NCBI GenBank assembly: GCA_041671325.1
Contig: JBAZBR010000002.1
Location: forward strand, 9,978 to 73,977
Reading direction: 5' to 3'
DNA from: Patescibacteria group bacterium
GTDB lineage: Bacteria > Patescibacteriota > Patescibacteriia > PEXW01
Length of the DNA: 64,000 bases
A program made the position numbers and the translations under genes. Below the pieces are notes generated by a model. The model was given only the letters and a program-made list of their open reading frames with translations. It made no database searches and was not told the origin of the DNA. This document shows, one piece after another, positions 4,629 through 50,718 of this stretch. The first letter of the stretch is position 1; the number at the start of each line of letters is the position of its first letter.

Positions 4629-4781
4629 CCCCTCTCCTATATAGGAGAGGGTGGCCACTGGCCGGGTAAGGTGGGGAAAAACGTAATCCAATTATTCTGA
4701 GCGCCCTCACCCCCGCTTCCTGCCCACCGTACTTCGTCTGCGAAGGCAGGCGGGCGCGTACCCTCTCCCAGAGGGAGAGGG
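4629..4781. repeat. solo GC-rich palindromic repeat cluster (MITE-like) with the same end motifs as the DUF559 elements
   Basis: Contains cccctctcctatataggagagggtgg, ggtaaggtgggg, ccctcaccc and ccctctcccagagggagaggg. Confidence 0.6.
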
Positions 4782-6191: not shown

Positions 6192-6671
6192 ATGATGCAA
6201 TTTGTAGTTCCCCAATTCATTGATGTCGAAGACAAGATTTTAGGGCCTTTAACCGTCCGCCAATTCTTGTTGCTCTTAGCCTGGGGTATTGTAGGTTTTT
6301 TATCCTTCAAGATCATGAGCTTCTTTACCTTCATATTTTTTGCAATTTTTTGGTCGGGTTTTATTTTTCTGCTGGCTTTTATCAAAATCAACGGCCGGCC
6401 TTTCCATTATTTCATCCTTTCAATTTTGCAGACCGAACGCATGCCAAAGTTGCGCATCTGGCATAAGGAAGATACTGAATATGAATTCCGTTTTGCGGCC
6501 GCCAAGGCCTTAAAACCAAAAACCCCGATAGCCCAAAAGCAGCCCCTCACCGCTTCCCGACTGACCGAACTTTCCTTAGTCGTAGATACTGGCGGCGTTT
6601 ATGATGAAACCGGCGATGTGGTGGCTGAAACTTTAAAAAATTCCAATGGCAAATACAGACCGACAAATTAA
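6192..6671 (+). CDS. PrgI/VirB3-like small T4SS membrane protein
   Basis: N-terminus MMQFVVPQFIDVEDKILGPLTVRQFLLLLAWGIVGFLSF matches the PrgI-family pattern (acidic motif, then GPLT..RQF and two TM helices). Directly upstream of and overlapping VirB4. Confidence 0.5.
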   Translation: MMQFVVPQFIDVEDKILGPLTVRQFLLLLAWGIVGFLSFKIMSFFTFIFFAIFWSGFIFLLAFIKINGRPFHYFILSILQTERMPKLRIWHKEDTEYEFRFAAAKALKPKTPIAQKQPLTASRLTELSLVVDTGGVYDETGDVVAETLKNSNGKYRPTN

Positions 6672-7326
6672 ACTCAAAGCCCCATCAACCCAAAAGTTCT
6701 TGGATGTCTGGGAAATCAAGGATGATGTAGTCATCTTGAAAAACGGCACTATCCGGAGCGTGCTTTTGGTTTCTTCCATGAATTTTGCTCTAAAAAGCGA
6801 CGAGGAGCAGGCGGCTGTCATTCAGGCTTACACTCAATACTTGAATATTATCGATTTTCCTTTGCAGATAGTCATCCAATCCAGGAAGTTGAACATTGAC
6901 CCTTATTTGGACAACCTTAAAGTCATTGAGAAAGCCCAAACCAACGAGCTTTTAAAAATGCAAACCCAAGAATACATCACTTACGTCAAAGAGCTGGTTG
7001 AGTTGGCCGATATTATGTCCAAAAGGTTTTACGTGGTCGTGCCTTTTGAACAAATTACCAAGAAGCGCCAAGGCTTTTTCAAGCGCTTGACGACCGTCAT
7101 TTCGCCCACTAACGTCATCCATATCAAGCAAAAAAGGTTTTTGGAAATGCGGGATGACTTGATGAAGCGGGTTGATTTTGTGGTGGATGGGCTTTCCGGA
7201 CTGGGCTTAAAAGCAGTACCCCTGGATACCCAAGGCTTGATTGAACTTTTTTATACGACCTATAACCCGCAAACTTCTGATCAGCAGAAGTTGGGGAATT
7301 TTGAACAATTGAGCGTTGAAAAATAA
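6646..7326 (+). CDS. VirB4/TraC/TrbE-family ATPase, N-terminal (CagE_TrbE_VirB-like) portion, separate ORF
   Basis: N-terminal region typical of Gram-positive-type VirB4. Ends with TAA overlapping the ATG of the next ORF (TAATG). Confidence 0.55.
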   Translation: MANTDRQIKLKAPSTQKFLDVWEIKDDVVILKNGTIRSVLLVSSMNFALKSDEEQAAVIQAYTQYLNIIDFPLQIVIQSRKLNIDPYLDNLKVIEKAQTNELLKMQTQEYITYVKELVELADIMSKRFYVVVPFEQITKKRQGFFKRLTTVISPTNVIHIKQKRFLEMRDDLMKRVDFVVDGLSGLGLKAVPLDTQGLIELFYTTYNPQTSDQQKLGNFEQLSVEK

Positions 7327-9224
7327 TGGCCATTAATTTATCCAAAAAACCCAAGGCAATGCAAGCGGAAACCCTTCCGCCTGTTCAAATTATGACTGAG
7401 GAAGAGGTGCAGCAGCAGTCAGGAATTGAATTGCAACGGAAGCGGGAAATGCTTGAGGCCGAAAGAATTTACCGCCGGGGCGTGGTTTCGGTTAGGGATT
7501 TTATTGCCCCGGCCTCGTTCAAAGTTTCAGCCAAAGAGGTGGAAATCGGCGGCAAGCTAGCCCGAACCATGTTCATCGTCACCTACCCTCGGTATATTGC
7601 CGTGGGTTGGTTTGCCCCAATTATTAATTTGAACGTGCCTTTGGATGTTTCCATGTTTTTCTACCCCGTCGGTTCAGAAGTGGTGCTCAAGCAATTACGC
7701 AATAAGGTAGGCCAATTGGAAGCCCAAATTTTATCAGATGCGGAAAAAGGCGCGCCCCGCGATCCAATTCGGGAAACGGCCTTGCGGGACATTGAACAGC
7801 TCCGCGATAATTTGACCCAAGGTACGGAAAAATTTTTCCAAGTTGCGCTTTATGTAACTCTTTATGGCGATAATAAAGAGGATTTGGACAAGCTCAGCGA
7901 TAAGGTCGAGTCTATGTTTGGCTCTAAATTGGTTTTTAGCAAGCGCGTCCTATACCAGGCTGAGCAAGGTTTTAATTCAACCTTACCCATTGGCAAAGAT
8001 GAATTGCAGGTATATTTCAACATGAATTCTTCGCCAGCGGCCAGCAGTTTCCCTTTTATTTCTTCAGATGTTTCTTCAGACAATGGCATACTTTATGGCA
8101 TTAACCGCCATAATAATTCTTTGATCCTATTTGACCGCTTTAGCCTGCAAAACGCGAATTTTGTGGTTTTTGCCACTTCTGGTGCGGGCAAAAGCTATGC
8201 CGTCAAGTTGGAAATACTCCGTTCGCTCATGGTTGGCACGGATGTTATCGTCATTGACCCTGAAAGGGAATATAAATATTTATCCGATGCGGTTGGCGGC
8301 ACTTATATCAACATCTCCTTGAATTCTGAATCAAAAATCAATCCCTTTGATTTGCCTCGGGCGGTTGGCGGCGCGGAAAAACCAGCAGACATCATCCGGG
8401 CCGCGGTCATTACTTTAAAAGGCATGTTGCGGCTTATGCTAGGCACCGTAACTCCAGAGGAAGATTCAATCATCGATCGGGCCTTGATTGAAACCTATGC
8501 CAAAAAAGACATAACTGCCGAATCCGATCTGACTACGGTTGAACCGCCATTGATGGCGGATTTCCAAGAGGTTTTATCCGGCATGGTTGGCGCTGAAGGC
8601 ATAACTGAAAGGATTAAAAAATACACCGAAGGCACCTTTTCCGGCCTCTTTAACAGTCCCACCAATATTGAACTCAGGAACCAGTTAGTCACCTTTTCCG
8701 TAAGGGATTTGGAAGATGAATTAAGGCCGATTGGCATTTCCATCATCGTCTCTTATATTTGGAATGTAGTCAGGTCGCAGCTGAAAAAGAGGATTTTGGT
8801 TATTGATGAAGCCTGGTGGCTGATGCAGAACGAAGATTCGGCCAAATTCATTTATGCTTTGGTTAAACGCTGCCGGAAATATTATTTGGGTGTCACGACC
8901 ATAACCCAAGACGTGAATGATTTCTTGCGTTCGCCCTATGGCCAGGCCATTGTCACTAATTCGGCTTTGCAGCTGCTCATGAAACAGTCGCCCGCGGGCA
9001 TTGATATGATCGCCAAGACTTTCATGCTGACCCAAGGTGAAAAATATTTATTGCTGGAAGCCGCGGTTGGCGAAGGTATATTTTTTGCCGGGCCCAAGCA
9101 TGCGGCCATAAAAGTCGTGGCTTCGTACACAGAAGACCAAATAATCACCTCTGACCCCAGGCAGCTTTTGGAAATCGAGGCGGCCAAAAAGGAATTTAAT
9201 GAAAGCAATCCCCAATCCAGTTAA
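7326..9224 (+). CDS. virB4: VirB4/TraC/TrbE-family T4SS ATPase, C-terminal ATPase portion
   Basis: Walker A FATSGAGKSY. VIDPEREY and VIDEAWW (Walker B-like) motifs. Architecture typical of VirB4. Confidence 0.8.
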   Translation: MAINLSKKPKAMQAETLPPVQIMTEEEVQQQSGIELQRKREMLEAERIYRRGVVSVRDFIAPASFKVSAKEVEIGGKLARTMFIVTYPRYIAVGWFAPIINLNVPLDVSMFFYPVGSEVVLKQLRNKVGQLEAQILSDAEKGAPRDPIRETALRDIEQLRDNLTQGTEKFFQVALYVTLYGDNKEDLDKLSDKVESMFGSKLVFSKRVLYQAEQGFNSTLPIGKDELQVYFNMNSSPAASSFPFISSDVSSDNGILYGINRHNNSLILFDRFSLQNANFVVFATSGAGKSYAVKLEILRSLMVGTDVIVIDPEREYKYLSDAVGGTYINISLNSESKINPFDLPRAVGGAEKPADIIRAAVITLKGMLRLMLGTVTPEEDSIIDRALIETYAKKDITAESDLTTVEPPLMADFQEVLSGMVGAEGITERIKKYTEGTFSGLFNSPTNIELRNQLVTFSVRDLEDELRPIGISIIVSYIWNVVRSQLKKRILVIDEAWWLMQNEDSAKFIYALVKRCRKYYLGVTTITQDVNDFLRSPYGQAIVTNSALQLLMKQSPAGIDMIAKTFMLTQGEKYLLLEAAVGEGIFFAGPKHAAIKVVASYTEDQIITSDPRQLLEIEAAKKEFNESNPQSS

Positions 9225-9239
9225 ATCTTAAAAAATAAT

Positions 9240-9836
9240 ATGTCAAAAAAGCTATTAATCATTCTTGCTGGAGCCGTAATTATTACCCTTGCCCTTTTAG
9301 TTTTATTATTCGTTTGGCAAAAGAAGGCGCCTAGCAACACTAATGCCAAAAATACCAATGCCAAAATCCCCAATATCAACACGGTGATTGTCAACCAAAA
9401 CTCAAACCAGAACGCAAACACCCAGCCAGTTGATTCAAATATCAATGACAAGCTTACAGTCCAGCAAGTTGCCCGGAGTTTCGCCGGTATATACGGAAGT
9501 TTTTCCACCCAAAATGATTTTCAGAATATCACTGATTTGTATTTTTACATGACCCCGCAACTGAAAGCCCAGCAAGAGGGCTATGTCGCCACCGAAAGGC
9601 AAAACCGCAAAGATAATTCTCTGTATCGGGGCATCACTTCGGAAGTCCGGATTGTAAATTTGGAAAGTTTTGACGCCCAAAACAAGACCGCGACCGTTAA
9701 AATCTCCTTGCAAAGAGTCGAATCAAGCGGCAGCACCAGCGAGAGTACCAATTATTACCAGGACATCACTTTAAGTTTTGAAAAACAGGATGGCGTCTGG
9801 AAAGTCGGCAAAATTGTTTGGGGGCCTAAGCAATAA
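9240..9836 (+). CDS. bitopic membrane protein with N-terminal TM, Asn-rich linker and C-terminal NTF2-like domain. Possible VirB8-like T4SS component.
   Basis: TM helix at aa 6-26. C-terminal ~120 aa resembles an NTF2-like fold. Position immediately after VirB4. Confidence 0.35.
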   Translation: MSKKLLIILAGAVIITLALLVLLFVWQKKAPSNTNAKNTNAKIPNINTVIVNQNSNQNANTQPVDSNINDKLTVQQVARSFAGIYGSFSTQNDFQNITDLYFYMTPQLKAQQEGYVATERQNRKDNSLYRGITSEVRIVNLESFDAQNKTATVKISLQRVESSGSTSESTNYYQDITLSFEKQDGVWKVGKIVWGPKQ

Positions 9837-9844
9837 TAGCTATT

Positions 9845-10558
9845 ATGGCAACTGCACAAGAAAATCAGCGATTAAGTGCGTTGACGCAAAGTAGTATAGT
9901 AAATAAAAGATTACAGGATGATATTTCAAAATTGACCAAGACGGATTTTCCCACGTGGGATGCGGCCCAAAGCGAACAAGGCAGGATGCAGATGGATTCA
10001 ATTATGGACAGGCAGACAAATAACAGAAGTTCAATACGTACTTCAGCTGATCAGCAAAAACAGGAACAAGGCAGGCTTTCAAGCCGTTTGAAACAATTAC
10101 GCAATATTAGAAAACAGTACGTTGATCAATTAGCCGCCAGCCCGATGGCCGAAGCCGTTACAGTCGCAAACCAGGCTTGGGCAAAGCAAGTGGATCTTTG
10201 GCAATCAGGCTTGGCTATTGGGGTTTGGGGTTTTGATATTGTGGTTTCGGATTGGCTTTTTATTTTGATTTGGCTGGCCAGGGTTTTTTCTCCTCTATTG
10301 CCCAAGCCGCGAGGGTTGCAGATTGTCCCGAGTTATAGCCTGAGAACCATGGGTGGCATTGGCACGGCCATCAGCCACGCCGGGACTGCCTTTTTTGCCG
10401 GGATTTGCTACTTAATCATCATTGTTTTTGTCGGGATAATCGCTTGGTTTGTCATGCAAATAGTCAATGGGAGCTTTTTGGAAAAAATTCAGGCGCTCTA
10501 TTATTTATTTACAGGCCCGTTGACGCCAATTTATGATGTGTTACAAAGCGCTTTATGA
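9845..10558 (+). CDS. hypothetical membrane protein with N-terminal coiled-coil and C-terminal 3-4 TM helices
   Basis: ORF with 4-nt overlap to the next gene. Hydrophobic C-terminus. Confidence 0.45.
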   Translation: MATAQENQRLSALTQSSIVNKRLQDDISKLTKTDFPTWDAAQSEQGRMQMDSIMDRQTNNRSSIRTSADQQKQEQGRLSSRLKQLRNIRKQYVDQLAASPMAEAVTVANQAWAKQVDLWQSGLAIGVWGFDIVVSDWLFILIWLARVFSPLLPKPRGLQIVPSYSLRTMGGIGTAISHAGTAFFAGICYLIIIVFVGIIAWFVMQIVNGSFLEKIQALYYLFTGPLTPIYDVLQSAL

Positions 10559-11754
10559 AGCAGTTTAAATTACTAATCATATTTTTTTTCGCCATTGCCG
10601 CTTTTTTATTTTCCCAACCGGTAAAAGCGGCTCTGGTGAGTTGTGATGAAAACGCAAAAGATTCAAATGGCAACTACATGAATGCTGGGCAAATTGAGCT
10701 GAAATGGATCCATGTCCAATTGCCCATTCCCGGGGTTACGGCGAATTGCGTTGATGACCAAGGCAAGAGCGTGGCCTATATCCAAGACCTCGGAGCCTAT
10801 ATTGCCGGCATGTATAAGTGGTTTTCCGGCGCCATTGGCATCCTGGCCGCCGTCATGGTCATGTACGGCGGGATAAAATGGATGGTGGCCGCGGGCAACC
10901 GCAGCCGAGTCCAAGACGCCAAAGAAACGGTTTTTACCGCCCTTATCGCCGTGGTAATTGCCCTCGGTTCTTATCTCTTGCTTTTTGTCATTAACCCAAA
11001 ATTAGTCAACTTACGGCCGCCAGCCTTGAGCACGGTCAAGCCAGTTTTGCAGAGCTTTGCCATGTGCCCGACCTTTAAAATTTGCCTATCCGGAACTAAC
11101 AAAGGCCAAGCCTGCGTCTTAGACACGGCCTGCGGGGCGCCGGCTAATTCCGGCGCTTGCGACTATGCCGTGGACGTGGGGACGGATATAGAACCAACAT
11201 GCGGCAATGAATACACTTATCGGGAAAAAGCCACGGGTTCTGGCACGTGTCGTGGTTCAGTCTGCCATGATAAGGACAAAAATGTCACTAATGATGTTTG
11301 TACGCTTGGCACCTGGAAGGACTCTGTTTTTTTGCCCAAGGCAATTGGTGGGACTTCTTGGGGCTGTACATCACCCGTACGACAATGCGAATCCATTACC
11401 GATGATAACGGTTCGGCGGCAGATTGTTCGCAATTTAGCATTGCCGGAAAAGGTAAGTGTGCTTGGATAGATTATCCTATGCTTGATCCAAAATCTGATG
11501 GTTGTTATTGGTTCCCAGTGCTTGAATGCGAACAGGGATATGAACGAGTTGGGTGTGATATATGTAATAATTCCGAACCGTTTGTCATTACTCAGTGTAA
11601 TCTTCAGCGTTGTTCCGAAGGGAGACTTTCAAAATGTATTTCGACTCAAGGAGAAATAGTATATTCTAATGATCTAACCCCAGACAAAAAAAATTGTAAG
11701 TCTATTTGTTGTAGAAAAGTTGGCGATACTGACTTAAAATGTTCAGCCCAATAA
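10555..11754 (+). CDS. secreted Cys-rich protein containing a TrbC/VirB2-like T4SS-pilin hairpin (two hydrophobic helices, MYGGIKWMVAAGN motif) and a ~240-aa C-terminal domain with about 28 cysteines
   Basis: Signal peptide MKQFKLLIIFFFAIAAFLFSQPVKA. Pilin-like helix-loop-helix at aa ~78-152. Paralogous to aa 170-245 of the gene at 13696. Confidence 0.55.
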   Translation: MKQFKLLIIFFFAIAAFLFSQPVKAALVSCDENAKDSNGNYMNAGQIELKWIHVQLPIPGVTANCVDDQGKSVAYIQDLGAYIAGMYKWFSGAIGILAAVMVMYGGIKWMVAAGNRSRVQDAKETVFTALIAVVIALGSYLLLFVINPKLVNLRPPALSTVKPVLQSFAMCPTFKICLSGTNKGQACVLDTACGAPANSGACDYAVDVGTDIEPTCGNEYTYREKATGSGTCRGSVCHDKDKNVTNDVCTLGTWKDSVFLPKAIGGTSWGCTSPVRQCESITDDNGSAADCSQFSIAGKGKCAWIDYPMLDPKSDGCYWFPVLECEQGYERVGCDICNNSEPFVITQCNLQRCSEGRLSKCISTQGEIVYSNDLTPDKKNCKSICCRKVGDTDLKCSAQ

Positions 11755-20598: not shown

Positions 20599-20868
20599 TT
20601 AAATTTCGGATTTAGTAAAATATTCTATCAGCATGGTACGTATTGTCGTTTTACCTTTTGCTGTTTTGAAGTATTTTTCCCTTCGTAGTGCATCATATTT
20701 ATTGGCATAAGCTTCAAAAAAAATTAAATCAAATGGTATACGCGGTTTTGTGGACGGAACCTTGCCTGAATTGTGCTGAATGAGTCGGTTAAATACATTA
20801 TCCGTAAAACCGATATAAAGACGTTTATCGCGCTTGCTTTGTAAAATGTAAACATAGAAATATTTCAT
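20599..20868 (-). CDS. stand-alone GIY-YIG nuclease family protein (90 aa)
   Basis: MKYFYVYILQS...LYIGFTDNVFNRLIQHN GIY-YIG motif. The ORF-track version (to 21018) reads through the tRNA; the internal Met at 20868 was chosen as start. Confidence 0.7.
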   Translation of the reverse strand: MKYFYVYILQSKRDKRLYIGFTDNVFNRLIQHNSGKVPSTKPRIPFDLIFFEAYANKYDALRREKYFKTAKGKTTIRTMLIEYFTKSEI

Positions 20869-20905
20869 AACATTTATAGTCAATGCAATGCACTGGGTGG
20901 CGGAG

Positions 20906-20927
20906 CCATGCACCGTACGGTGCATGG
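20906..20927. repeat. 20-bp perfect palindrome CATGCACCGTACGGTGCATG fused to the CCA end of tRNA-Ser(GCT). A second copy at 23039-23058 is fused to the tRNA-Ser pseudo-copy.
   Basis: Identical 20-mer at both loci, each immediately 3' of ...CTCTCCGCCA. Confidence 0.6.
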
Positions 20928-21016
20928 CGGAGAGTAGAGGATTCGAACCTCTGCGGGACTTTTTAGATCCCCGCGGTTTAGCAAACCGCTGCCTTAAGCC
21001 GCTCGGCCAACTCTCC
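20926..21016 (-). tRNA. tRNA-Ser (anticodon GCT), type II with long variable arm, CCA encoded
   Basis: GGAGAGTTGGCCGAGCGG...anticodon loop TTGCTAA...GGTTCGAATCC...ACTCTCCGCCA. Cloverleaf folds manually. Confidence 0.8.
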
Positions 21017-21159
21017 ACGGATCATCATGAACTTCACCCTTCGCATCCTCGCATTTGCGAGTTTGCTTCGGGTTTCGTTCGTGTGCTCCTCTCCCCATTG
21101 ATACCAAAGGTATCAATGGGGACCCCTAAAATAAATATTACAAAAGATTCATCCAGAAG

Positions 21160-21168
21160 TGCTATACT
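21160..21168 (+). promoter_or_regulatory. extended -10 element (TGcTATACT) 9 nt upstream of ATG of the 21178 gene, suggesting a leaderless or near-leaderless transcript
   Basis: TGnTATACT match. No SD between it and the ATG. Confidence 0.3.
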
Positions 21169-21177
21169 ATACCCAGT

Positions 21178-21681
21178 ATGGAACAGCGTACCAATGAATC
21201 CGAATCTATTCAAGACCAGATACTTTTAGAATGGGAATTCCCCTCTTTTGAAAAGCATAAACGGGGCATAGTCTGGTATTTGGTAATGCCGGTTATTTTT
21301 CTTGCGCTTTTAATTTGGACCATAATCATAAAAAATTTCCTTTTCTCAATAATCATAATCTTAATAGGGATTATCCTGGGTTCAAAAGAGTTTGTTCAGC
21401 CCCAAAGGGTAAAATTTTCAATTAAAGAATCTGGCATAATAATTGATGATAAATTTTACCGTTTTCGGGAATTTGATAAGTTTTGGATTGCCTATGAACC
21501 GCCAGAAATTAAAGTTTTGTACTTAGAATTTAAAACCGGGCTGAGGACAAATTATTCAATCCCTTTATTGGATCAAAATCCGCTTAAAGTCAGGACAATT
21601 TTGCAAAAATACATACTTGAAGATTTGGAAAGGGAAAGCGAAGATTTAACTGACCGTCTTGCCAGGCTTTTTAAGTTTTAA
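21178..21681 (+). CDS. hypothetical membrane protein (2 TM) with C-terminal soluble domain
   Basis: 167-aa ORF with ATG start. Confidence 0.5.
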   Translation: MEQRTNESESIQDQILLEWEFPSFEKHKRGIVWYLVMPVIFLALLIWTIIIKNFLFSIIIILIGIILGSKEFVQPQRVKFSIKESGIIIDDKFYRFREFDKFWIAYEPPEIKVLYLEFKTGLRTNYSIPLLDQNPLKVRTILQKYILEDLERESEDLTDRLARLFKF

Positions 21682-21829
21682 TTAACCTTGCGTGAATATT
21701 CAGGATATGGTACGAAAGTAAGGTTAGATTTTGTGCATTTATTAATTATTTACGCGCTCGTAGTCCCGTCCTCGACTTGCTAAATAAATTAAATCCCTTA
21801 AAAATCAGCATTAGAGAAAATTATTGTGC

Positions 21830-21906
21830 GCGCTCGTAGCTCAGCTGGATAGAGCGCAAGCTTGCGGAGCTTGAGGTCACAGGTTCAACTCCTGTCGAGC
21901 GCACCA
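21830..21906 (+). tRNA. tRNA-Arg (anticodon GCG as folded; anticodon assignment moderately certain), CCA encoded
   Basis: GCGCTCG-TA-GCTCAGCTGGATAGAGC-G-CAAGC-TTGCGGA-GCTTG-AGGTC-ACAGGTTCAACTCCTGT-CGAGCGC-A-CCA. Perfect acceptor and T arms. Confidence 0.7.
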
Positions 21907-22285
21907 CGCGTCAATCCTTGCGTCGGATTACGTGTGCTCATATTTATGAGCCCACTCCCCGCCTGCCTTCGCCAGACGAAGTACGGCGGACAGGCACCCT
22001 CTGCAAGGTTGCCGCTTTTCCTCATCCCGCCGTATGGCGGGACGTGCTCCTCCCCCTCGACTACGCTCGGGGTCGTGCGCGCCTCATTCGCGAGGCGTGT
22101 AAGCAGCCCGCTTACCCCAAATTTTCGATGATAATTTGGGGATCCCTTCTAATGATTTTATAAGCGTGCCGCTTTCCCCATTTCATCTTTGATGAAATGG
22201 GGATCCTAAAATTTGGAACCCTTAATAACTTAACCGCTATGTCGATTTTTCTCGCACTCAAGTTTTGCCGTGCGGAGTCATTAGT

Positions 22286-22314
22286 ATTGACAAAACAAGA
22301 AAATCCTGCTATCT
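22286..22314 (+). promoter_or_regulatory. sigma70-like promoter TTGACA-17nt-TATCTT upstream of the 22371 gene
   Basis: Hexamer and spacing match. Confidence 0.4.
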
Positions 22315-22370
22315 TTTAGCATTAACTGTAATTTCAGTAATTTTCTTTCTAACTTGATAGGAGGTCAACA

Positions 22371-22634
22371 ATGGGCTCGCAAAACGCAATGGTGGCTCTG
22401 CGTCGTGGGGAAGAGCTAGATTTAGGAGGCGTCCGAGTTAAGGCGGTTATGATCTCAGACGGAACTTTGGCCGAGGTTAAAGAGGGAGACCTATATGTTG
22501 CTGAACGCAACACTGGCCCTCATTTGCTGATAGCGGCCAAGATAGTGCCTCCTGGTCACGGAGGCTTTATTGTGCCAACAACGCCGGATTACGCTTTCGA
22601 TATCTGTGATTGCGTGGCGGTTGTCGAAGCCTAA
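22371..22634 (+). CDS. hypothetical small protein (87 aa), orphan gene with its own promoter, strong RBS (AGGAGGT) and terminator
   Basis: GGAGG 6 nt upstream of ATG. Terminator hairpin immediately downstream. Confidence 0.45.
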   Translation: MGSQNAMVALRRGEELDLGGVRVKAVMISDGTLAEVKEGDLYVAERNTGPHLLIAAKIVPPGHGGFIVPTTPDYAFDICDCVAVVEA

Positions 22635-22647
22635 CGCCCAGTCCCTA

Positions 22648-22686
22648 CCCGCCAGATTTTTTAGTCTGGCGGGTTTTCTCTTTTTA
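22648..22686 (+). terminator. rho-independent terminator (cccgccagat-tttttag-tctggcggg followed by a T-run)
   Basis: 9-bp GC stem plus TTTTCTCTTTTT. Confidence 0.6.
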
Positions 22687-22805
22687 TTTCAAGGTAAATG
22701 ATTTATCATACATTTACTGTTCACCGAATAGATTAGCCTGAGTCGGCTCTAAATTGGAGGCGTGCGAGAGTGGTTTAATCGGATGGTCTTGTCCTGCAGC
22801 GTGGC

Positions 22806-22893
22806 GGAGGGTTGGCCGAGTGGTCTATGGCGACGGTCTTGAAAACCGTTAGGGCGCAAGTCCTCGTAGGTTCGAATCCTACACCCTCCGCCA
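22806..22893 (+). tRNA. tRNA-Ser (anticodon TGA), type II, CCA encoded
   Basis: GGAGGGTTGGCCGAGTGG...CTTGAAA anticodon loop...GGTTCGAATCC...ACCCTCCGCCA. Confidence 0.85.
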
Positions 22894-22963
22894 CGAGTCG
22901 GGATCCCGCAGTCCTATATAAAAGATTTCTAAGAGCGGGAAAAACCCTGCCTGCCGGCAGGCA

Positions 22964-23040
22964 GGCGTTAGTGCGCAAGTCCTCGTAGGTTCGCCTGCCC
23001 GCCAAAGCGAAGCGTCGGCAGGAATCCCTCTCTCTCCGCC
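22964..23040 (+). pseudogene. tRNA-Ser 3'-half pseudo-copy: anticodon-stem 3' side, variable arm and T arm, with a 29-nt hairpin insertion (22993-23021) in the T-loop and an acceptor 3' end, CCA and trailer matching those of tRNA-Ser(GCT)
   Basis: 21-nt identity gcgcaagtcctcgtaggttcg with 22855-22875. The 3' end CTCTCCGCCA plus the palindrome CATGCACCGTACGGTGCATG is identical to the 3' end and trailer of the tRNA at 20926-21016. Confidence 0.5.
23004..23034 (+). repeat. direct repeat R0 (aaagcgaagcgtcggcaggaatccctctctc). Imperfect copies R1 at 23773-23827 and R2 at 24404-24446 bracket the UDG-like and lipoprotein genes.
   Basis: 26/31 identity between R0 and R1. R1 and R2 share ctgg(t/c)gc(a/g)gtaaactggc(t/a)attg(t/c)a(a/g)a(g/a)cgaagcgt. 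Confidence 0.5.
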
Positions 23041-23124
23041 ATGCACCGTACGGTGCATGACTCCGCAAGGACAATTTAGTATCGGATGACCCACGTGTCT
23101 CAAAAATTAAATTAAAAGAGATCT

Positions 23125-23691: not shown

Positions 23692-23847
23692 CCCCACGTC
23701 TCTCTTGTCTAATTTTAAACAACATAAAACCGGCTCAGCACCTGTTTTATGAAAATAAATTTTAAGCCACTGCTGGTGCAGTAAACTGGCTATTGTAAAG
23801 CGAAGCGTCGGCGGGAAGCCTTCTCTTTCAGTAACCGTAATTTAGCC

Positions 23848-23917: not shown

Positions 23918-24316
23918 ATGTATCGTACGCGCGTGGCCAGCATAACGCTGGTGTTGCTGTCCGTAATGACTTTTTACGGATGTTCAATATTTCAGTCGGA
24001 TCCAATTTGGCGTTCGAATGATGGGCAAGTGTCGCTAAATATTGACAGCTTGGTGACTGCCGGGATGATCTCTGAGCAGCACCTAGCCAAGGGACTGCCC
24101 ACGGCTGACGGGATCTTTGACCAGTACAGTGTTGTACTGCCCCTTGATCGCGATGGAAACCTCAAACTAAGCATGGAAGACGTGGCATTGATTGATCGGG
24201 TTAAGGAGGCGTACGAAATTCAGGCCAAAACCATGAGGATCTACAATTGGCAAACCTGGAGAAACCAGAATGGGACAATACTGGGTGTAAGCTATTTCGT
24301 TGGCTCAAGGATCTAG
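23918..24316 (+). CDS. hypothetical lipoprotein (signal peptide plus lipobox ...TFYGC)
   Basis: RBS AAGGAGAAG upstream of ATG at 23918 (internal Met of the track ORF starting 23876). Terminator downstream. Confidence 0.5.
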   Translation: MYRTRVASITLVLLSVMTFYGCSIFQSDPIWRSNDGQVSLNIDSLVTAGMISEQHLAKGLPTADGIFDQYSVVLPLDRDGNLKLSMEDVALIDRVKEAYEIQAKTMRIYNWQTWRNQNGTILGVSYFVGSRI

Positions 24317-24366: not shown

Positions 24367-24512
24367 ATTGCCTGATTTATGGGTCGAAAAATTTAAACTA
24401 CTACTGGCGCGGTAAACTGGCAATTGCAGAACGAAGCGTTAAGGGGAATTTTTAAGATCCCGCCGCATGGCGGAGCTACGCCCCCTGCCATCGTTTTGCG
24501 TTTTTACTATAA

Positions 24513-26936: not shown

Positions 26937-27395
26937 ATGAAAAAAGAACAAAAAGCCTGGTTTCAGGTTTCGCTTAAGGTTTTATTAGTCAATTCTCGGG
27001 GCAAAATTTTAATTCTTAAAGCTGCTAAGAGTGGCTCATTCCAAGGCTATTATGATTTGCCCGGCGGCAGGATTAATGTTGGGGAAATTAAAAAACCAAT
27101 CGCAGGTTTAATTAGGAGGGAAATAAAAGAAGAAGTTGGAGAAATTAAGTATGAATTACAACCAACGCCTGTCGCCTTTGGCAGACACGTAATACCTGCC
27201 AAGTTCAATTCAAGCAAAAAGCCAATAAATGTCTTTTATGTGTTTTTTATTGCTAAGTATAAAGGCGAGAAAATAAAAATCAGTCGAGAGCATCAGGGTT
27301 TTAAATGGGTCAACTTGAGTAAAATAAAACTTGAAAAATATTTCAAATCAGGGATTTTAGAGGGAGTAAAAAAATATACCTCCTCTCCTATATAG
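26937..27395 (+). CDS. NUDIX hydrolase
   Basis: Nudix box LPGGRINVGE...REIKEEVGE. Confidence 0.75.
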   Translation: MKKEQKAWFQVSLKVLLVNSRGKILILKAAKSGSFQGYYDLPGGRINVGEIKKPIAGLIRREIKEEVGEIKYELQPTPVAFGRHVIPAKFNSSKKPINVFYVFFIAKYKGEKIKISREHQGFKWVNLSKIKLEKYFKSGILEGVKKYTSSPI

Positions 27396-27497
27396 GAGAG
27401 GAGCCCCCGGCCGCGGGGGCAGGTGAGGTTGGCTAATAAACTTACTCATTTTTTTCAGAGTACCCTCACCCCAAACCCTCTCCCAGAGGGAGAGGGG
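27381..27497. repeat. solo GC-rich palindromic repeat cluster (MITE-like)
   Basis: Contains ctctcctatataggagagg, gcccccggccgcgggggc, aggtgaggttgg, ccctcacccc and ccctctcccagagggagaggggg. Confidence 0.6.
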
Positions 27498-32215: not shown

Positions 32216-32532
32216 ATATATTTTATTCCCTCTCCCTCTGTCCAGGGCTGATTTTGTTTTTCTAATCGTAATATTTTTGGCTAACCTCCCCCAAACCCCC
32301 TCCTTGGTAAGGAGGGGAAGGCTGGTTCTTAAACTCCTCCCCTTGCCAAGGGGAGGGTTTGGGTGGGGTCACAATTCTCGCGATAACTGAGGAAATTCCG
32401 ATTACGTAAATAGAACCACAATTTCAATTCATGGGGGTTCAGTAATTTCCTTTGTTTCCTGGCAAGAGGAGTAATTTTTTTCATGCTTGCTAACCTCACC
32501 CTCAATCCCTCTCCTTTATAGGAGAGGGAGGG
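32216..32532. repeat. cluster of related GC-rich palindromes between lemA and htpX
   Basis: Contains ccccctccttggtaaggagggg, cctccccttgccaaggggagg, ggtgggg and cctcaccctcaatccctctcctttataggagagggaggg. Confidence 0.55.
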
Positions 32533-39670: not shown

Positions 39671-40801
39671 ATGCCGATTTTTTCTTCAAAACAAAGCTAT
39701 TTAGGCATTGATATTGGCGGTTCAGCCATTAAGCTGGTTGAAATTAAACCGATTGCCAACCGGCCGACTTTGGTTACCTATGGTTTTGCGGAAAAACGCA
39801 GTGACTTGCTTAAAAGCACCTTAGGCGAAGAAATGAAAGCCATAATCGCGGCCATAAAACAGGTGGTTGAAGCCAGTCGTGCCAGTTCCAGGCTAGTAGT
39901 CAGCGCTTTGCCCAGTTTTACGGTTTTCAGCTCAATAATTTCCCTGCCGCAGATGTCAAAAAAAGAATTAATGTCAGCCGTAAAATGGGAAGCGAAAAAA
40001 TTTGTGCCCATGCCGGTTGAAGAAATGATTTTGGACTGGGAAGTCTTGAAAGATGATACCTTGGCGGCCAAGGTGGCAGGCGTGAACGCGCAAGGTACGG
40101 TAACCAAGGACGCAAACCTGCCTTCGCCGGAAGTGGCCGGCAAAAACAGCGCCAAAGACCTGAAGGTTTTACTGACTGCCGCGCCAAAAAATTTGGTCCA
40201 AAAATACATGGAGATTTTCAAAGCCGCTGATTTGCAACTGGTGGCTTTGGAAACTGAAGCTTTTTCTTTGGAAAGGTCGTTAATCGGCCATGACAAGGCG
40301 CCCATCATGATTGTGGATATTGGCGCGGTGGCTTCCAATATCGTAGTCTTCAGCGAAGGCATTCCCATGCTGACCCGCTCCATCGATGTCGGCGGCGATA
40401 CTATTACAAAAACCATAGCCAGCACCCTAAGGGTCAGCCCAGATCGGGCCGAACAGTTTAAGCGGGATTTTTTCATTGCCACCCAAGGCATGACTGACAG
40501 CAATATCCCCAAGGCCATTGAGTTTGTGGTTAATTCCATAACCAACGAGATTAAATACGTCCTGAATCTTTACCAGAACCAGGGCACTGGCCGGAATATT
40601 GAAAAAATTATTCTTTCCGGCGGCTCGGCTTTCCTGACCAATTTGCCCGAATACTTCACGAAAATTTTAAATATCCAAACTTATATTGGCGATCCCTGGG
40701 CCAGGGTTTCTTACCCGGTGGAATTAAAGCCGGTTTGGGATGAAATTGGGCCCAGATTTGCGGTTGCCGTAGGCTTGGCCTTAAGGCAATTAGGAAGTTA
40801 A
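39671..40801 (+). CDS. pilM: type IV pilus assembly ATPase-like protein PilM (actin/FtsA fold)
   Basis: LGIDIGGSAIKLVE N-terminus. Length and motifs in the PilM pattern. Confidence 0.85.
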   Translation: MPIFSSKQSYLGIDIGGSAIKLVEIKPIANRPTLVTYGFAEKRSDLLKSTLGEEMKAIIAAIKQVVEASRASSRLVVSALPSFTVFSSIISLPQMSKKELMSAVKWEAKKFVPMPVEEMILDWEVLKDDTLAAKVAGVNAQGTVTKDANLPSPEVAGKNSAKDLKVLLTAAPKNLVQKYMEIFKAADLQLVALETEAFSLERSLIGHDKAPIMIVDIGAVASNIVVFSEGIPMLTRSIDVGGDTITKTIASTLRVSPDRAEQFKRDFFIATQGMTDSNIPKAIEFVVNSITNEIKYVLNLYQNQGTGRNIEKIILSGGSAFLTNLPEYFTKILNIQTYIGDPWARVSYPVELKPVWDEIGPRFAVAVGLALRQLGS

Positions 40802-40804
40802 CTT

Positions 40805-42148: not shown

Positions 42149-42156
42149 AAAATTCA

Positions 42157-42759
42157 ATGCGTATTAGTCTTAAAAAAATAACCAGCTTCATTGCCGAACA
42201 CTTGTCAATAATCGGCAAGATAGTTGCTTTTATTATCCTGATAATCGGCATATTATTTTTAGTCGTACCCCAGTATCAGAAGGCCAGGGGATTAGCCGGT
42301 GTAGATTACACCTATAAAAAAACCCAACTCGAAAACGAAACACAATATAGAGACAGCTTGTTTGAGTTGAGAAATAGCTTAAACAAAATCCCCCAAGAGG
42401 ACATTGACCGAATTTCCTTGATAATTCCTAAAGGCAAGGATATCCCGGGCATATTCAAGCAGATGGAGGGATTTGCTAAATCAGTGGGCATGACCCTGCA
42501 ATCAGTTTCGATTTCTGATGGTGGGCTAGCAACCGGTTCAACCGCAAGCGCAGCGGCAGGAAATGCCAGCCAAGTTAAAACTCTTTCAATTTCCGTGGTT
42601 TTGGGCGGTTCAATGAATTATAGCCGAATGAAAGATTTCTTGAACACTTTAGCCAAACAGGCTCCGATATTGGATCTAACCAGCATTTCATATTCTCCTG
42701 CCACCAGCGCGGTACCCACTACGTATAGCTTTTCCTTTCGTTCGTATTATTTTCAATAA
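42157..42759 (+). CDS. PilO-like pilus assembly protein
   Basis: N-terminal TM, coiled-coil, and C-terminal domain. Operon position pilM-N-O. Confidence 0.5.
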   Translation: MRISLKKITSFIAEHLSIIGKIVAFIILIIGILFLVVPQYQKARGLAGVDYTYKKTQLENETQYRDSLFELRNSLNKIPQEDIDRISLIIPKGKDIPGIFKQMEGFAKSVGMTLQSVSISDGGLATGSTASAAAGNASQVKTLSISVVLGGSMNYSRMKDFLNTLAKQAPILDLTSISYSPATSAVPTTYSFSFRSYYFQ

Positions 42760-42764
42760 ATATT

Positions 42765-45670: not shown

Positions 45671-45706
45671 CCATTGATCTCATTAAATCTCCATAATCAG
45701 TAATTT

Positions 45707-46153
45707 ATGCCAAACCAAATGACGAAAAAAAGCGATAGCCGCAAGAATCACGCTGAAAATGCCAAGAAACCCGCCCACGAATTGGGCAAGAAAACCATAC
45801 TTCTGGTGGAGGATGACACGTTTTTAGCTGGAATGTATGTGACTAAACTGGAACTGGAAGGCTTCCGGGTTTTGCTGGCCAGTGATGGCGAACAGGCCGT
45901 GGTTTTAGCCAAAAAAGAAATTCCAAATATCATGCTTTTGGACATTATTTTGCCCAAGAAAAGCGGTTTTGAAGTATTGCAAGAGATAAAAGCCAGTGCT
46001 TCAACCAAGAATATTCCGGTTATACTCCTAACCAACCTCGGCCAGAAAGAAGATGTCCAAAAAGGCTTAAAATTAGGGGCAGTTGATTATTTAATCAAGG
46101 CGCATTTCATGCCTTCCGAAGTCGTGGCCAAAGTTAAGAGATTAGTGAAGTGA
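45707..46153 (+). CDS. single-domain response regulator (CheY-like receiver, PilH/PilG-like position)
   Basis: LLVEDD...D57-like LLDIILP...K at the expected positions. Confidence 0.8.
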   Translation: MPNQMTKKSDSRKNHAENAKKPAHELGKKTILLVEDDTFLAGMYVTKLELEGFRVLLASDGEQAVVLAKKEIPNIMLLDIILPKKSGFEVLQEIKASASTKNIPVILLTNLGQKEDVQKGLKLGAVDYLIKAHFMPSEVVAKVKRLVK

Positions 46154-47359: not shown

Positions 47360-47362
47360 TTT

Positions 47363-50713: not shown

Positions 50714-50718
50714 AGAAT

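Follow-up and report, generated by a model that had tools for sequence, protein, structure and literature searches.

The tRNA-Ser genes of the locus described here appear to have been hit repeatedly by a selfish system that targets tRNA genes and combines a GIY-YIG nuclease with a short hairpin, an overall explanation to which we give a probability of about 0.55. The firmest part of it concerns the hairpin itself, a 22-bp palindrome found twice in the window (the whole stretch of DNA that was analysed, 64 kb in length), which very probably is an independent insertion placed before the CCA of a tRNA gene with duplication of the preceding 5 nt. The features of the locus are collected in Table 1.

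Table 1. Features of the locus, in window coordinates
Feature	Coordinates	Strand	Remarks
Stand-alone GIY-YIG nuclease gene, 89 aa, Slx1/UPF0213 type	20599-20868	-	Pfam PF01541, E=8e-16
Displaced original end of tRNA-Ser(GCT)	20898-20905	-	Second CTCCG and original CCA, CTCCGCCA
22-bp hairpin element, copy 1	20906-20927		CCATGCACCGTACGGTGCATGG; perfect palindrome between discriminator G73 and C74
tRNA-Ser(GCT), intact	20925-21016	-	ARAGORN; Rfam tRNA, 56.1 bits
5-nt target-site duplication, tRNA-side copy	20928-20932	-	CTCCG, tRNA positions 69-73
tRNA-Arg(GCG)	21830-21906	+	ARAGORN and Rfam
Hairpin in tRNA-Arg trailer (context)	21962-21994	+	CCTGCC...GACAGG family
5' fragment of an older tRNA-Ser	22756-22791	+	Acceptor strand, D-arm, anticodon stem to first two anticodon bases (TG)
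Resident tRNA-Ser(TGA), intact	22806-22893	+	CCA without palindrome; ARAGORN; Rfam, 60.5 bits
GC-rich 20-bp palindrome	22946-22965		CCTGCCTGCCGGCAGGCAGG; left bound of pseudo-copy
28-nt copy of resident tRNA-Ser(TGA), positions ~42-57	22966-22993	+	27/28 against 22847-22874
29-nt hairpin at T-loop junction	22994-23022	+	CCTGCC-N17-GGCAGG
Probable 3' end of an older tRNA-Ser(TGA)	23023-23038	+	T-loop AAT, 3' T-stem strand, 3' acceptor strand, discriminator
22-bp hairpin element, copy 2	23039-23060		CCATGCACCGTACGGTGCATGA; 21/22, last base mutated
Second duplication copy with displaced, decayed original end and trailer	23061-23070	+	CTCCG, then CAAGG

Soundness of the locus

The locus is real, and an assembly artefact is excluded by the agreement of three independent assemblies: one ENA contig and two Logan contigs, all from other samples, match it with 1 base difference each over 17.9 kb, 7.3 kb and 1.2 kb. 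A chimera arising from the repeated tRNA segments could be suspected from two Logan contigs, which stop at 22864 within the resident tRNA-Ser(TGA), inside its 28-nt repeated segment; this possibility is negligible, however, given that the different samples agree to within one base across the whole locus and that unrelated genomes show the same architecture. As a separate observation, the tRNA-Arg trailer is a stretch of 300 nt rich in hairpins.

The 22-bp hairpin at tRNA ends

The 20-mer CATGCACCGTACGGTGCATG is found at exactly two sites in the 64 kb (20907 and 23040), with none expected in 100 shuffles even when 3 mismatches are allowed, and the earlier note was right that two Ser tRNA ends share a palindrome. 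The two sites have 28 identical nucleotides in common, CTCTCCGCCATGCACCGTACGGTGCATG, within a 45-nt inverted repeat (89%). At tRNA-Ser(GCT) the inserted palindrome provides the present encoded CCA (20925-20927) with its first three bases and so restores the tRNA end, and the original end is displaced to a position just past the element. This layout of a displaced N5 and CCA is also present in L044, L032, L009, L013, L014, L024 and other loci.

In public data, 40 contigs carry the identical element; they come from Patescibacteria, Saccharibacteria, Saganbacteria, Terriglobia and Gammaproteobacteria, and the GC content of the contigs ranges from 0.35 to 0.64. The element abuts a complete tRNA 3' end in 17 of the 40 loci (13 Ser, 3 Asn and 1 Gln). 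In most of the others, with flanks read by eye, its neighbour is a pseudo 3' end or a tRNA truncated by the end of the contig; the 22-mer has a non-tRNA placement in 8 loci (6 sites). The palindrome follows Ser tRNAs with three different anticodons, tRNAs for Asn and Gln, and further tRNAs across several phyla, a spread over many unrelated tRNAs that the earlier note had named as counting against its own reading.

Together with a flanking 5-nt repeat, the 22-mer is found at 29 places in the public loci. The repeats on its two sides, of 5 nt (4 nt at a few sites), vary with the site: CTCCG at tRNA-Ser, CGGAG at tRNA-Asn, CCAG in L007, CCCCG in L029, CACG in L031 and CGAG in L026, and the 4-5 nt repeats come in at least seven versions, the pattern of a site-dependent target-site duplication. 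A blind scan of the collected loci for a 22-bp hairpin between two copies of N5 returns 39 cases, against 0-1 in shuffles, and the element is exactly 22 bp long in all 39. Since the 5 nt after it duplicate whatever stands before it, the palindrome is to be seen as an independent insertion and not as the recombination core that the earlier note had offered as one option, and its non-tRNA sites point the same way. Each insertion recreates the target, and tandem arrays of 22-bp hairpins therefore form (L012, L011, L010, L045 and L057).

For comparison with sites that lack the insertion, L050 has a homologous trailer without the 27-bp insertion, and the region at 23061-23070, minus these 27 bp, aligns with its palindrome-free site CACTTCCTCCG/CCAAGAGAACTTAGTATCGGACAGACCC. 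In L052, tRNA-Ser(TGA) is followed 68 nt later by the UDG gene with nothing between. Both are distant relatives, and no strain-level empty allele is found.

The hairpin might instead be a selected signal at the RNA level that does not move, and that serves the tRNA precursor in its 3' processing, its stability or its termination, or caps the 5' end of the GIY-YIG mRNA. Several features are consistent with such a role: the hairpin always starts at the CCA, the 136-nt region that holds the pseudo-copy (22940-23075) folds strongly (-56.3 kcal/mol, z = -3.95), and the 22-mer of L042 lies within a terminator-like A8/T8 stem. The sister hairpins also appear to keep their pairing through compensatory changes, as judged from 12 distinct 22-mers in which both-sided changes are present at 6 of 9 pairs and 95% of cells pair, a fraction inflated by a scan that demanded pairing. 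Against this, neither window copy is flagged by the terminator scan or followed by a T-run (the copies continue with CTCCGCCACCCAG and CTCCGCAAGGAC), and the element lacks the combination of GC-rich hairpin and T-run that characterizes an intrinsic terminator. Selection on a signal, moreover, cannot yield a target-specific 5-nt duplication with a displaced CCA, and the hairpin is missing from the orthologous tRNAs of relatives but present on dead pseudo-ends and at non-tRNA sites. We conclude that the palindrome is neither a terminator, contrary to the other option of the earlier note, nor an att core, and consider an immobile RNA signal very improbable.

The composite half-tRNA

The second copy of the hairpin stands at the end of a composite of tRNA pieces. 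The partial copy of tRNA-Ser(TGA) described in the earlier note is confirmed at 27 of 28 positions, with an exact run of 21 nt; it covers the anticodon stem 3' side, the variable arm, the T-stem 5' side and TTCG. The hairpin that was said to interrupt the T-loop is there as well, between GGTTCG and AATCC. It belongs to a small dispersed family, since the pattern CCTGYC-N8-26-GRCAGG has 4 matches in the window against 0.11 expected, and its right half recurs at 23797-23829. The 20-mer CCTGCCTGCCGGCAGGCAGG, on the left, is identical in the related loci L055 and L056, and is also found inside a tRNA D-loop (L061/L093) and in 35 stretches of IMG/VR contigs.

Past the T-loop the pseudo-copy switches to the 3' end of a different tRNA. 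The earlier note took this end to be exactly that of tRNA-Ser(GCT), and only the last ~8 nt of the tRNA part match; the 17-nt end GAATCCCTCTCTCTCCG (23023-23038 with the preceding G) is instead identical, 17/17, to the 3' end of tRNA-Ser(TGA) in L055/L056, and its last 15 nt, ATCCCTCTCTCTCCG, are also found in tRNA-Ser(TGA) of L053. In L055 this tRNA has its own 22-bp hairpin, CTCCG and a GIY-YIG gene. By these alignments the segment does not come from the resident gene and is probably the displaced end of an ancestral tRNA-Ser(TGA). A further piece that the earlier note lacks, the 36-nt 5' fragment at 22756-22791, is located just upstream of the intact tRNA-Ser(TGA), breaks off in the anticodon loop, and agrees at 24 of 27 positions with the 5' portion of tRNA-Ser(GGA) in L049, the closest relative. 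No single ancestral gene accounts for all three pieces at 22756-23038, whose acceptor strands read GGAGGCG, GGAGGGT and TCTCTCC.

A functional intron-containing or split tRNA was considered and rejected: ARAGORN makes no call and Rfam gives no hit at E<=10 on 22756-22791 or 22966-23041, in keeping with the earlier note, and the T-stem strands of the pseudo-copy, GTAGG and CCCTC, are unable to pair.

The earlier note saw in this locus an attachment-site remnant. In that explanation an integrase-mobilised island or prophage was lost, the partial tRNA copy is its attR, and the palindrome lies in the att core. The part that stands is that the partial copy records an insertion of DNA in the 3' half of a tRNA-Ser gene. 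Integrating elements commonly leave incomplete second copies of tRNAs (PMC9897764). The breakpoints of the pseudo-tRNA are in the anticodon loop and the T-loop. Two loci, L028 and L039, keep only the last 27 nt of tRNA-Ser with the palindrome, resembling a genuine attR of a larger insertion. The two loops are reportedly the classic sublocations of integrase crossover, as Williams is said to have described in 2002. The remainder does not hold: no integrase, recombinase or transposase is found by Pfam in ~35 window ORFs, including all within 10 kb of the locus; the 28-nt direct repeat bounds just 91 nt, with no island or cargo, and does not run to the tRNA 3' end as the repeat bounding an integrated element does; the match to the resident tRNA ends at the T-loop; and a palindrome with its own 5-nt duplication, found also at non-tRNA sites, leaves no shared att core. 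We therefore find an attachment-site remnant quite improbable.

The same architecture recurs elsewhere. An intact tRNA, a short spacer, and a hairpin with pseudo 3' end and 22-mer are found in L006/L020, L016, L021, L017 and L053, and L049 has the layout without the 22-mer. The tRNA-linked repeats enclose 90-320 nt and at most one 89-aa gene, with GC-rich hairpins at the junctions. Such comparisons suggest that the half-tRNA is wreckage from tRNA-Ser genes that were repeatedly hit and replaced.

The neighbouring GIY-YIG gene

The GIY-YIG gene starts 29 nt past the displaced end of tRNA-Ser(GCT), on the same strand as the tRNA, and lies outside the palindrome and its duplication. The GIY-YIG domain, the catalytic domain of one class of homing endonucleases, spans residues 4-73 of the 89 aa, and the protein has no separate DNA-binding domain that could confer specificity for a long site. 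Residues Y7, Y18, G20, R28, H32 and E64 are invariant among 27 homologues, and the closest solved structures are the UPF0213 proteins 1zg2 and 1ywl and SLX1 (7wme).

At least 17 loci have a homologue at a distance of ~30-400 nt from the palindrome. The element usually has such a gene after it, with a product of 85-95 aa, placed just downstream of the hairpin-bearing tRNA. In L016, L021 and L027 the gene has the tRNA on one side and, on the other, a 13-nt repeat of the tRNA 3' end. The distribution is sporadic, with genes adjoining tRNA-Ser, Asn, Gln or Met in some genomes while the same tRNAs in relatives are without them. In a small sample selected through GIY-YIG, whose loci were reached through the proteins and not the palindrome, the 22-bp hairpin with its duplication is present at 5 of 6 tRNAs with an adjacent GIY-YIG gene versus 0 of 7 tRNAs without (6/1287 = 0.005 in Fisher's test, calculated by hand).

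The association is observed, and it makes the GIY-YIG nuclease a tentative candidate for the enzyme of hairpin insertion. The question is whether the hairpin could instead be a non-autonomous mini-transposon or REP-like repeat, mobilised in trans by an unlinked transposase, with the GIY-YIG gene an independent selfish or housekeeping gene that is associated with tRNAs and shares the hot spot. The duplication, the palindromic ends, the many sites and the sister families are all expected of such a repeat. About half of the loci have the palindrome but no GIY-YIG gene close by; among them, in the sequence covered per locus, are the six non-tRNA sites and a seven-locus Terriglobia group (L004, L013, L022, L024, L028, L030 and L039). 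Conversely, no tRNA or hairpin lies near the other GIY-YIG gene of the window (57585-57830). Because the 20-mer is identical across phyla and the adjoining proteins are only 37-60% identical, palindrome and GIY-YIG gene are not simply moving together. On the other side, no transposase is seen near any copy, no autonomous partner with CCATGCACCGT...ACGGTGCATGG ends is seen in about 60 loci, and the element is far shorter than known MITEs; to our knowledge, 22 bp is below any substrate of a conventional transposase. The REP features are missing as well (5' GTAG is absent, a duplication is present, and no RAYT, the IS200-like TnpA, is among the tested window ORFs), and the linkage to GIY-YIG is tight in a sample not chosen through the palindrome. 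We regard the trans-mobilised repeat as unlikely.

Proposed mechanism and its meaning

In our preferred reading of a GIY-YIG/hairpin system, the insertion itself is the part that is shown: the hairpin enters between the discriminator and C74 with the preceding 5 nt duplicated, its initial CCA rebuilds the encoded tRNA 3' end, and the old N5 and CCA, shifted 27 bp downstream, decay. A structure-specific GIY-YIG nuclease may make the 5-nt staggered break where the acceptor stem meets the single-stranded tail, and tRNA loop positions are possible cut sites as well. Ligation of the hairpin and fill-in of the stagger would then give the duplication, and the inserted hairpin would spoil the target of the nuclease while the tRNA stays functional.

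Applied to the composite, the last 16 nt of the pseudo-half with the palindrome and duplication would be the original end of an older tRNA-Ser(TGA) that, like its counterparts in relatives, once had the UDG gene directly after it. Subsequent events may have broken the older gene at the anticodon loop and the T-loop, left GC-rich hairpins at the junctions and installed the present tRNA-Ser(TGA), and the 5' fragment of yet another tRNA-Ser would remain upstream.

In its most far-reaching form, which we consider doubtful, the proposal is a minimal transposable system of a new mechanistic kind: a structure-specific nuclease of 85-95 aa would have the tRNA gene, folded or extruded, as its recognition target, make two cuts with a 5-nt offset at the acceptor-end junction and put in the 22-bp hairpin, which would immunise the site and keep the tRNA alive, and the system would spread across phyla by way of the universal shape of tRNA genes.

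If correct, this would be a very small and very widespread mobile DNA that uses the acceptor end common to all tRNA genes and spares the gene. The multi-copy "GIY-YIG nuclease family protein" genes of candidate-phyla-radiation and other genomes would acquire a function, and many annotation-confusing tRNA fragments and odd tRNA trailers would be explained. It would also mean that tRNA-Ser genes are serially overwritten in small genomes.

Comparison with known systems

SegB is a two-domain phage protein, whereas the window protein is a bare domain of the Slx1/UPF0213 type. It offers a precedent for the present proposal: as a free-standing GIY-YIG homing endonuclease of phages T4/T6, often co-located with tRNAs, it is reported to cut tRNA-containing DNA and to drive local segmental duplication through breaks and recombination (PMC13096335). 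In both cases the nuclease gene adjoins tRNA genes, and the GIY-YIG genes of the present family have tandem duplications and tRNA fragments around them (a triplication in L055, and L044). The present family differs in being chromosomal, with viral contigs nearly without it (2 loci), and a 22-bp hairpin with duplication is not described for SegB.

Like this locus, the islands and prophages of tyrosine integrases have their breakpoints in the anticodon loop, in the T-loop or at the tRNA 3' end. Integrative elements that target tRNA leave partial tRNA duplicates and restore a functional tRNA (PMC9897764), whereas the locus here has no integrase and no island, its enclosed stretches are short, and GC-rich hairpins mark the junctions.

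Like REP/RAYT elements and MITEs, the 22-bp element is short, dispersed, intergenic, hairpin-forming and non-autonomous. REPs have a 5' GTAG and no duplications, MITEs have a minimum length of ~50-100 bp and inverted repeats that match those of a known IS, and we know of neither that targets the discriminator/CCA junction.

For the protein, the UPF0213 structures 1zg2 and 1ywl, which have the same minimal domain, are the best structural relatives. The excerpted text of a survey describes the stand-alone UPF0213/Slx1-like family as a minimal GIY-YIG variant with a predicted repair role, and treats it there as mostly vertically inherited repair proteins, without a tRNA link (PMC1564403). The genes here, by contrast with that excerpt, are multi-copy, sporadic, and flank tRNAs and tRNA fragments.

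The Neurospora palindrome has the core CCCTGCAGTACTGCAGGG, which resembles the 22-mer in outline. Neurospora PstI palindromes flank tRNA genes (PMC4478555, citing Yin et al. 1981). The mitochondrial GC clusters (yeast GC42) are GC-rich palindromes set in genomes rich in AT; they occur sporadically among strains, have a short target-site duplication and a hairpin constraint, and merge into arrays, and endonucleases are suspected as the enzyme (PMC4478555). The 22-bp element shares the short GC-rich palindrome, the short duplication, the hairpin constraint and the arrays; it differs in its occurrence in bacteria of several phyla instead of organelles, in its exact discriminator/CCA insertion point, fixed 22 bp and 5-nt duplication, and in its link to a specific nuclease gene. 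If our reading is correct, it would be a bacterial counterpart to these long-unexplained mobile palindromes, with a testable candidate enzyme.

Insertion of a 22-bp palindrome at the discriminator-CCA junction

The element found at tRNA 3' ends in the window is a perfect 22-bp palindrome (CCATGCACCGTACGGTGCATGG), and the five nucleotides that precede it (four at a few sites) are repeated directly after it. The repeat varies with the site: CTCCG at tRNA-Ser, CGGAG at tRNA-Asn, CCAG, CCCCG and CACG in the public loci L007, L029 and L031, and CGAG in L026, L037 and L040. The original CCA is usually next after the second repeat. The tRNA-Ser(GCT) gene on the minus strand reads ...ACTCTCCG (CCATGCACCGTACGGTGCATGG) CTCCG CCA CC..., and the tRNA-Ser-like pseudo-copy reads ...CTCTCTCCG (CCATGCACCGTACGGTGCATGA) CTCCG CAAGG.... 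The repeats and the placing of the CCA show that the element was inserted between the discriminator G73 and C74 with duplication of positions 69-73. The inserted element supplies a new CCA, and the old tRNA end is displaced 27 bp downstream.

A scan blind to sequence (any 22-bp hairpin whose arms are 8 bp long and whose flanking pentamers are identical) finds 39 cases in the collected loci versus 0-1 in shuffles, every element found being exactly 22 bp. An element-free site is present in locus L050 (...CACTTCCTCCG followed by CCAAGAGAACTTAGTATCGGACAGACCC), with which the window minus 27 bp (...CTCTCTCCG joined to C-AAGGACAATTTAGTATCGGATGACCC) can be aligned. In L052, the UDG gene, which lies next to tRNA-Ser in relatives, starts 68 nt after tRNA-Ser(TGA), and both the hairpin and the pseudo-copy are absent. 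A search through UDG homologues yielded L049, L050 and L052 and no strain-level empty allele, gene order being poorly conserved.

The search core of the element, the 20-mer CATGCACCGTACGGTGCATG, occurs in the window at two positions only, where chance predicts none even with three mismatches; together they make up an inverted repeat of 45 nt with 89% identity. The locus is present in contigs of three other samples (one from ENA, two from Logan), and their agreement with the window to one base each indicates that its structure is real. An intrinsic terminator, one of the roles suggested for the palindrome in the earlier note, is rejected, since a T-run follows neither of the window copies and a terminator scan flags neither.

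Features of the window
Feature	Coordinates	Strand	Remarks
Third hairpin family, CCCTCTCC-N4-6-GGAGAGGG	4630-4651, 4761-4781, 27380-27403, 27476-27496, 32297-32356, 32506-32529, 49096-49371, 53052-53078, 53478-53503, 61002-61030		GC-rich, abundant, often after CCCTCACCC
Type IV secretion-like genes; type IV pilus/T2SS-like cluster	6192-11754 and 39671-58743		PrgI, T4SS pilin; PilM, T2SSE, T2SSF, several N-methyl pilins
First GIY-YIG gene	20599-20868	as tRNA-Ser(GCT)	89 aa, PF01541, E=8e-16
20-mer sites	20907 and 23040		
tRNA-Ser(GCT)	20925-21016	minus	ARAGORN, Rfam
Hairpin related to the tRNA-Arg trailer repeats	21092-21122		after the 5' side of tRNA-Ser(GCT)
tRNA-Arg(GCG)	21830-21906		ARAGORN, Rfam
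tRNA-Arg trailer	21907-22215		~300 nt, ORF-free, rich in hairpins
46-nt unit ending TCCCCA(AT-rich)TGGGGATCC	22100-22145 and 22161-22206		two copies within the trailer
tRNA-Ser 5' fragment	22756-22791		36 nt
tRNA-Ser(TGA), intact	22806-22893		ARAGORN, Rfam
20-bp palindrome CCTGCCTGCCGGCAGGCAGG	22946-22965		
Pseudo 3' half, left part	22966-22993		equals 22847-22874 at 27/28
T-loop hairpin CCTGCC...GGCAGG	22994-23022		29 nt, between GGTTCG and AATCC
Pseudo 3' half, right part	23023-23038		AATCCCTCTCTCTCCG, followed by CCATGCACCGTACGGTGCATGA
61-nt repeat	23757-23829 and 24388-24448		77% identity
ORF between the 61-nt repeats	23918-24316		132 aa
DUF559 (Vsr-like endonuclease) ORF	48696-49052		118 aa, Pfam E=2e-33
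Second GIY-YIG gene	57585-57830	+	81 aa, PF01541 E=2e-18, 49% identical to first

Occurrence and relatives of the element

The 20-mer is matched exactly in 40 public loci, 8 of them in species-representative genomes and 32 in metagenome contigs. Hosts with a name are three Patescibacteria genomes, members of Saccharibacteria, Saganbacteria and Terriglobia, and one gammaproteobacterium, and the GC content of the contigs ranges from 0.35 to 0.64. The element abuts a complete tRNA 3' end in 17 of the 40 loci (13 Ser with anticodons CGA, GCT and GGA, 3 Asn, 1 Gln); in most of the others, according to our reading of the flanks, it follows a pseudo 3' end or a tRNA truncated by the contig end. Eight loci, corresponding to six sites, have it away from tRNAs. 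At L041 (843-862), the palindrome lies ~90 nt past the point (754) at which a 23S rRNA match, covering model positions 1387-2036, breaks off, and is probably inside an rRNA insertion. In the Terriglobia-like L028 (9965-10020) and L039 (60-130), tRNA-Ser(CGA) is reduced to its last 27 nt with palindrome and duplication, a remnant that resembles a true attR left by a large insertion; a CRISPR repeat match is also present in L028.

The element has sister sequences (CCCTGTACCGTACGGTACAGGG, CCATGTACCGTACGGTACATGG, CCGTATACCATCCGGTATACGG, CTATACACCGAATGGTGTCTAG and CCCTGTACCGGCTGGTACAGGG among them). The 12 distinct family members keep a 9-bp stem around a 4-nt loop, with changes on both sides in 6 of 9 pairs, and 95% of the cells pair, a fraction to be read with the caveat that the hairpins came from a scan requiring pairing. 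Since each insertion recreates N5/CCA on both sides, arrays result, as in L012 (one copy and four of a variant), L011, L010, L045 and L057. A longer hairpin is seen in L058 (1359-1420), beside another GIY-YIG gene, where tRNA-Met ends CGCAA-CCATGTACC...(22-nt loop)...GGTACATGG-CTTGCG; it has the same arms, CCATGTACC and GGTACATGG, and its flank is inverted, not direct.

Composition of the pseudo 3' half

The earlier note described a partial copy of tRNA-Ser(TGA) after the intact gene, with a 29-nt hairpin in its T-loop. Both are confirmed, the copy lying 72 nt downstream. Is this interrupted copy a functional tRNA with an intron, the reading that the earlier note had set against its own? It lacks the tested defining features of one: Rfam, at gathering thresholds and even at E<=10, yields only the three tRNAs. 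The hairpins match no ribozyme or other RNA family.

The pseudo 3' half is composite. The near-exact match of its left part to the resident gene indicates a recent copy. The right part cannot pair with the T-stem strand of the left part, and it differs from the ends of both the resident gene (AATCCTACACCCTCCG) and tRNA-Ser(GCT) (AATCCTCTACTCTCCG), to the second of which the earlier note had assigned it. With the preceding G (GAATCCCTCTCTCTCCG), the right part matches the tRNA-Ser(TGA) 3' end of loci L055 and L056 at 17/17 positions, and its last 15 nt also occur in L053. The alignment with L055/L056 runs on through hairpin and repeat (39/45 positions), L055 for its part bearing a 22-bp hairpin with CTCCG as well as a GIY-YIG gene, and in the relatives L052 and L049 a tRNA-Ser lies directly upstream of UDG. 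On the strength of this match and of the gene order in relatives, 23023-23065 is read, in preference to the tRNA-Ser(GCT) assignment, as the end that an older tRNA-Ser(TGA) originally had at this locus, with the 22-bp insertion already present.

The earlier note overlooked a tRNA-Ser 5' fragment directly upstream of the intact gene, which comprises acceptor strand, D-arm and anticodon stem through the first two anticodon bases. It belongs to a third tRNA gene and matches tRNA-Ser(GGA) of L049 at 24/27. A single split gene as the source of both fragment and pseudo 3' half is rejected because their acceptor strands do not pair (GGAGGCG vs TCTCTCC). As the three pieces do not form one gene, at least two replacement events are recorded here.

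Comparable architectures exist elsewhere. In L017, an 11-nt 5' fragment and the 3' half of one tRNA-Ser(CGA), intact in L008, bracket a different intact tRNA-Ser(CGA), and the 3' half ends in the palindrome and a decayed repeat (CTCCT). An intact tRNA-Ser followed by ~100-160 nt, a GC-rich hairpin and (G)AATC... to the 3' end is found in L006/L020, L053 and L049, the pseudo-end of L049 without the 22-mer. In each of L016, L021 and L027, the tRNA is separated by a GIY-YIG gene from a 13-nt repeat of the tRNA 3' end; in L035, virtually the tRNA of L016 stands without a cassette, the palindrome directly on its CCA. From these layouts, the window pseudo-copy looks like the right-hand remnant of a cassette of this kind that has lost its gene. 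Searching by pattern for more pseudo 3' ends gave results at noise level. The 61-nt repeat flanks a 132-aa ORF, and its first copy runs into AAAGCGAAGCGTCGGCGGGAAGCCTTCTCTTTC; this stretch has 88% identity to the pseudo-tRNA end together with the right half of the T-loop hairpin, and may be a further pseudo 3' end.

The hairpins at the junctions are members of a small family, CCTGYC-N-GRCAGG, with 4 window copies versus 0.11 expected. The 20-bp palindrome CCTGCCTGCCGGCAGGCAGG is identical in the related bacterial loci L055/L056 (L055 1136 and 1258) and occurs in 35 IMG/VR stretches (L062-L096); phage contigs carry it inside the D-loop of a tRNA adjoining a GIY-YIG gene (L061/L093 515) and within a tRNA-Met, in its variable loop (L063 8616, L086 2284). 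Its copies have no consistent target-site duplication. A 122-nt unit (39 nt from upstream, nucleotides 1-15 of tRNA-Ser(TGA), GGTTCCGCCAAAG... and the 20-bp palindrome) stands three times in tandem at L055 1060-1340, twice in full and the third continuing into the intact tRNA-Ser(TGA); this triplication is a local segmental amplification beside a GIY-YIG gene. The third hairpin family clusters around the DUF559 ORF, which may be another pairing of nuclease and hairpin.

A GIY-YIG gene beside the element

We turn to the gene that starts 29 nt past the displaced end of tRNA-Ser(GCT). Its product, in which Glu64 is an invariant residue, is a bare GIY-YIG domain with the UPF0213 proteins 1zg2 and 1ywl and the SLX1 homologue 7wme as closest solved relatives, and it belongs to the stand-alone Slx1-like branch described by Dunin-Horkawicz et al. 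(PMC1564403). By tblastn, homologues lie ~30-400 nt from the palindrome in at least 17 loci, usually in the order tRNA, hairpin(s), GIY-YIG on one strand. The Nitrospirae locus L057 runs from serS and tRNA-Ser(TGA) through a pair of hairpins, each with CTCCG behind it, to CCACCC and GIY-YIG; the relative L044, which shares a Clp-ComF gene neighbourhood with the window, has three GIY-YIG genes, and its tRNA-Ser(GCT) bears the identical palindrome plus CTCCG. In loci collected independently of the palindrome (through the GIY-YIG homologues P0005, P0024, P0009, P0016, P0044 and P0045 and through UDG homologues), a 22-bp hairpin with pentamer repeat is present at 5 of the 6 tRNAs that have a GIY-YIG gene next to them and at 0 of the 7 that do not (one-sided Fisher 6/1287 = 0.005, by hand).

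Several observations speak against the enzyme link, however. About half of the palindrome loci have no GIY-YIG gene in the DNA examined, the palindrome stays identical between loci whose proteins share only 37-60% identity, the 89-aa protein has no DNA-binding domain, and the second GIY-YIG gene of the window, flanked by type IV pilus-related genes, has no tRNA or 22-bp hairpin nearby. The secretion genes and the large pilus cluster are typical of Patescibacteria and have no bearing on the element. Downstream of the first GIY-YIG gene, a second boundary repeat was sought and only a weak CTCCG at ~20536, not significant, was found. A phage origin is rejected: an exact-match scan of IMG/VR viral contigs gives zero copies of the 20-mer, and the GIY-YIG family is nearly absent there (only 2 loci).

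A possible mechanism

What the loci show is where the element sits, its duplication, the CCA it restores, its arrays, its spread over several phyla, its linkage to the nuclease gene and the architecture of the fragments; the rest is inference. The breakpoints fall at 73/74, in the T-loop and in the anticodon loop, and in relatives in the D-loop; in a tRNA gene strand folded as a cloverleaf, all of these would be single-stranded or junctions. Slx1-Slx4 cutting is structure-specific. The GIY-YIG nuclease could cut cloverleaf-type structures of the tRNA gene, in keeping with the structure specificity of Slx1-type nucleases (PMC1564403). At the acceptor end, a 5-nt staggered break would be filled in to give the duplication, and the hairpin would be joined into the break, parting the tRNA body from its downstream context, so that the site would no longer be cut while its tRNA would still function. 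Repeated breaks and recombination with other tRNA-Ser copies could then produce duplications, replacements and fragments. For the step of break and recombination there is a documented precedent in phage SegB, a GIY-YIG endonuclease often found with tRNAs, which drives tRNA-segB segmental amplification via breaks and homologous recombination (PMC13096335).

Comparison with known systems

In open-access full texts, we found analogues only: no 22-bp element at the discriminator-CCA junction is described, and the small GIY-YIG family is not described as tRNA-linked. The attachment-site remnant proposed in the earlier note is unlikely: the locus lacks those features of an integrase att site that were tested as defining, and those of REP sequences are likewise lacking. 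The element has the duplication of a transposable insertion; no autonomous partner with matching ends is seen in about 60 loci. The closest systems are the GIY-YIG homing endonucleases that stand free in phage tRNA clusters, integrase att remnants (PMC9897764), REP/MITE repeats, and the mobile GC-rich palindromes found in mitochondria, characterized by a short duplication, a hairpin constraint, tRNA-flanking positions and no known enzyme (PMC4478555). We consider it rather unlikely that the locus is a mechanistically new minimal transposable system, and rate it as a variant of homing-endonuclease-associated mobile palindromes.
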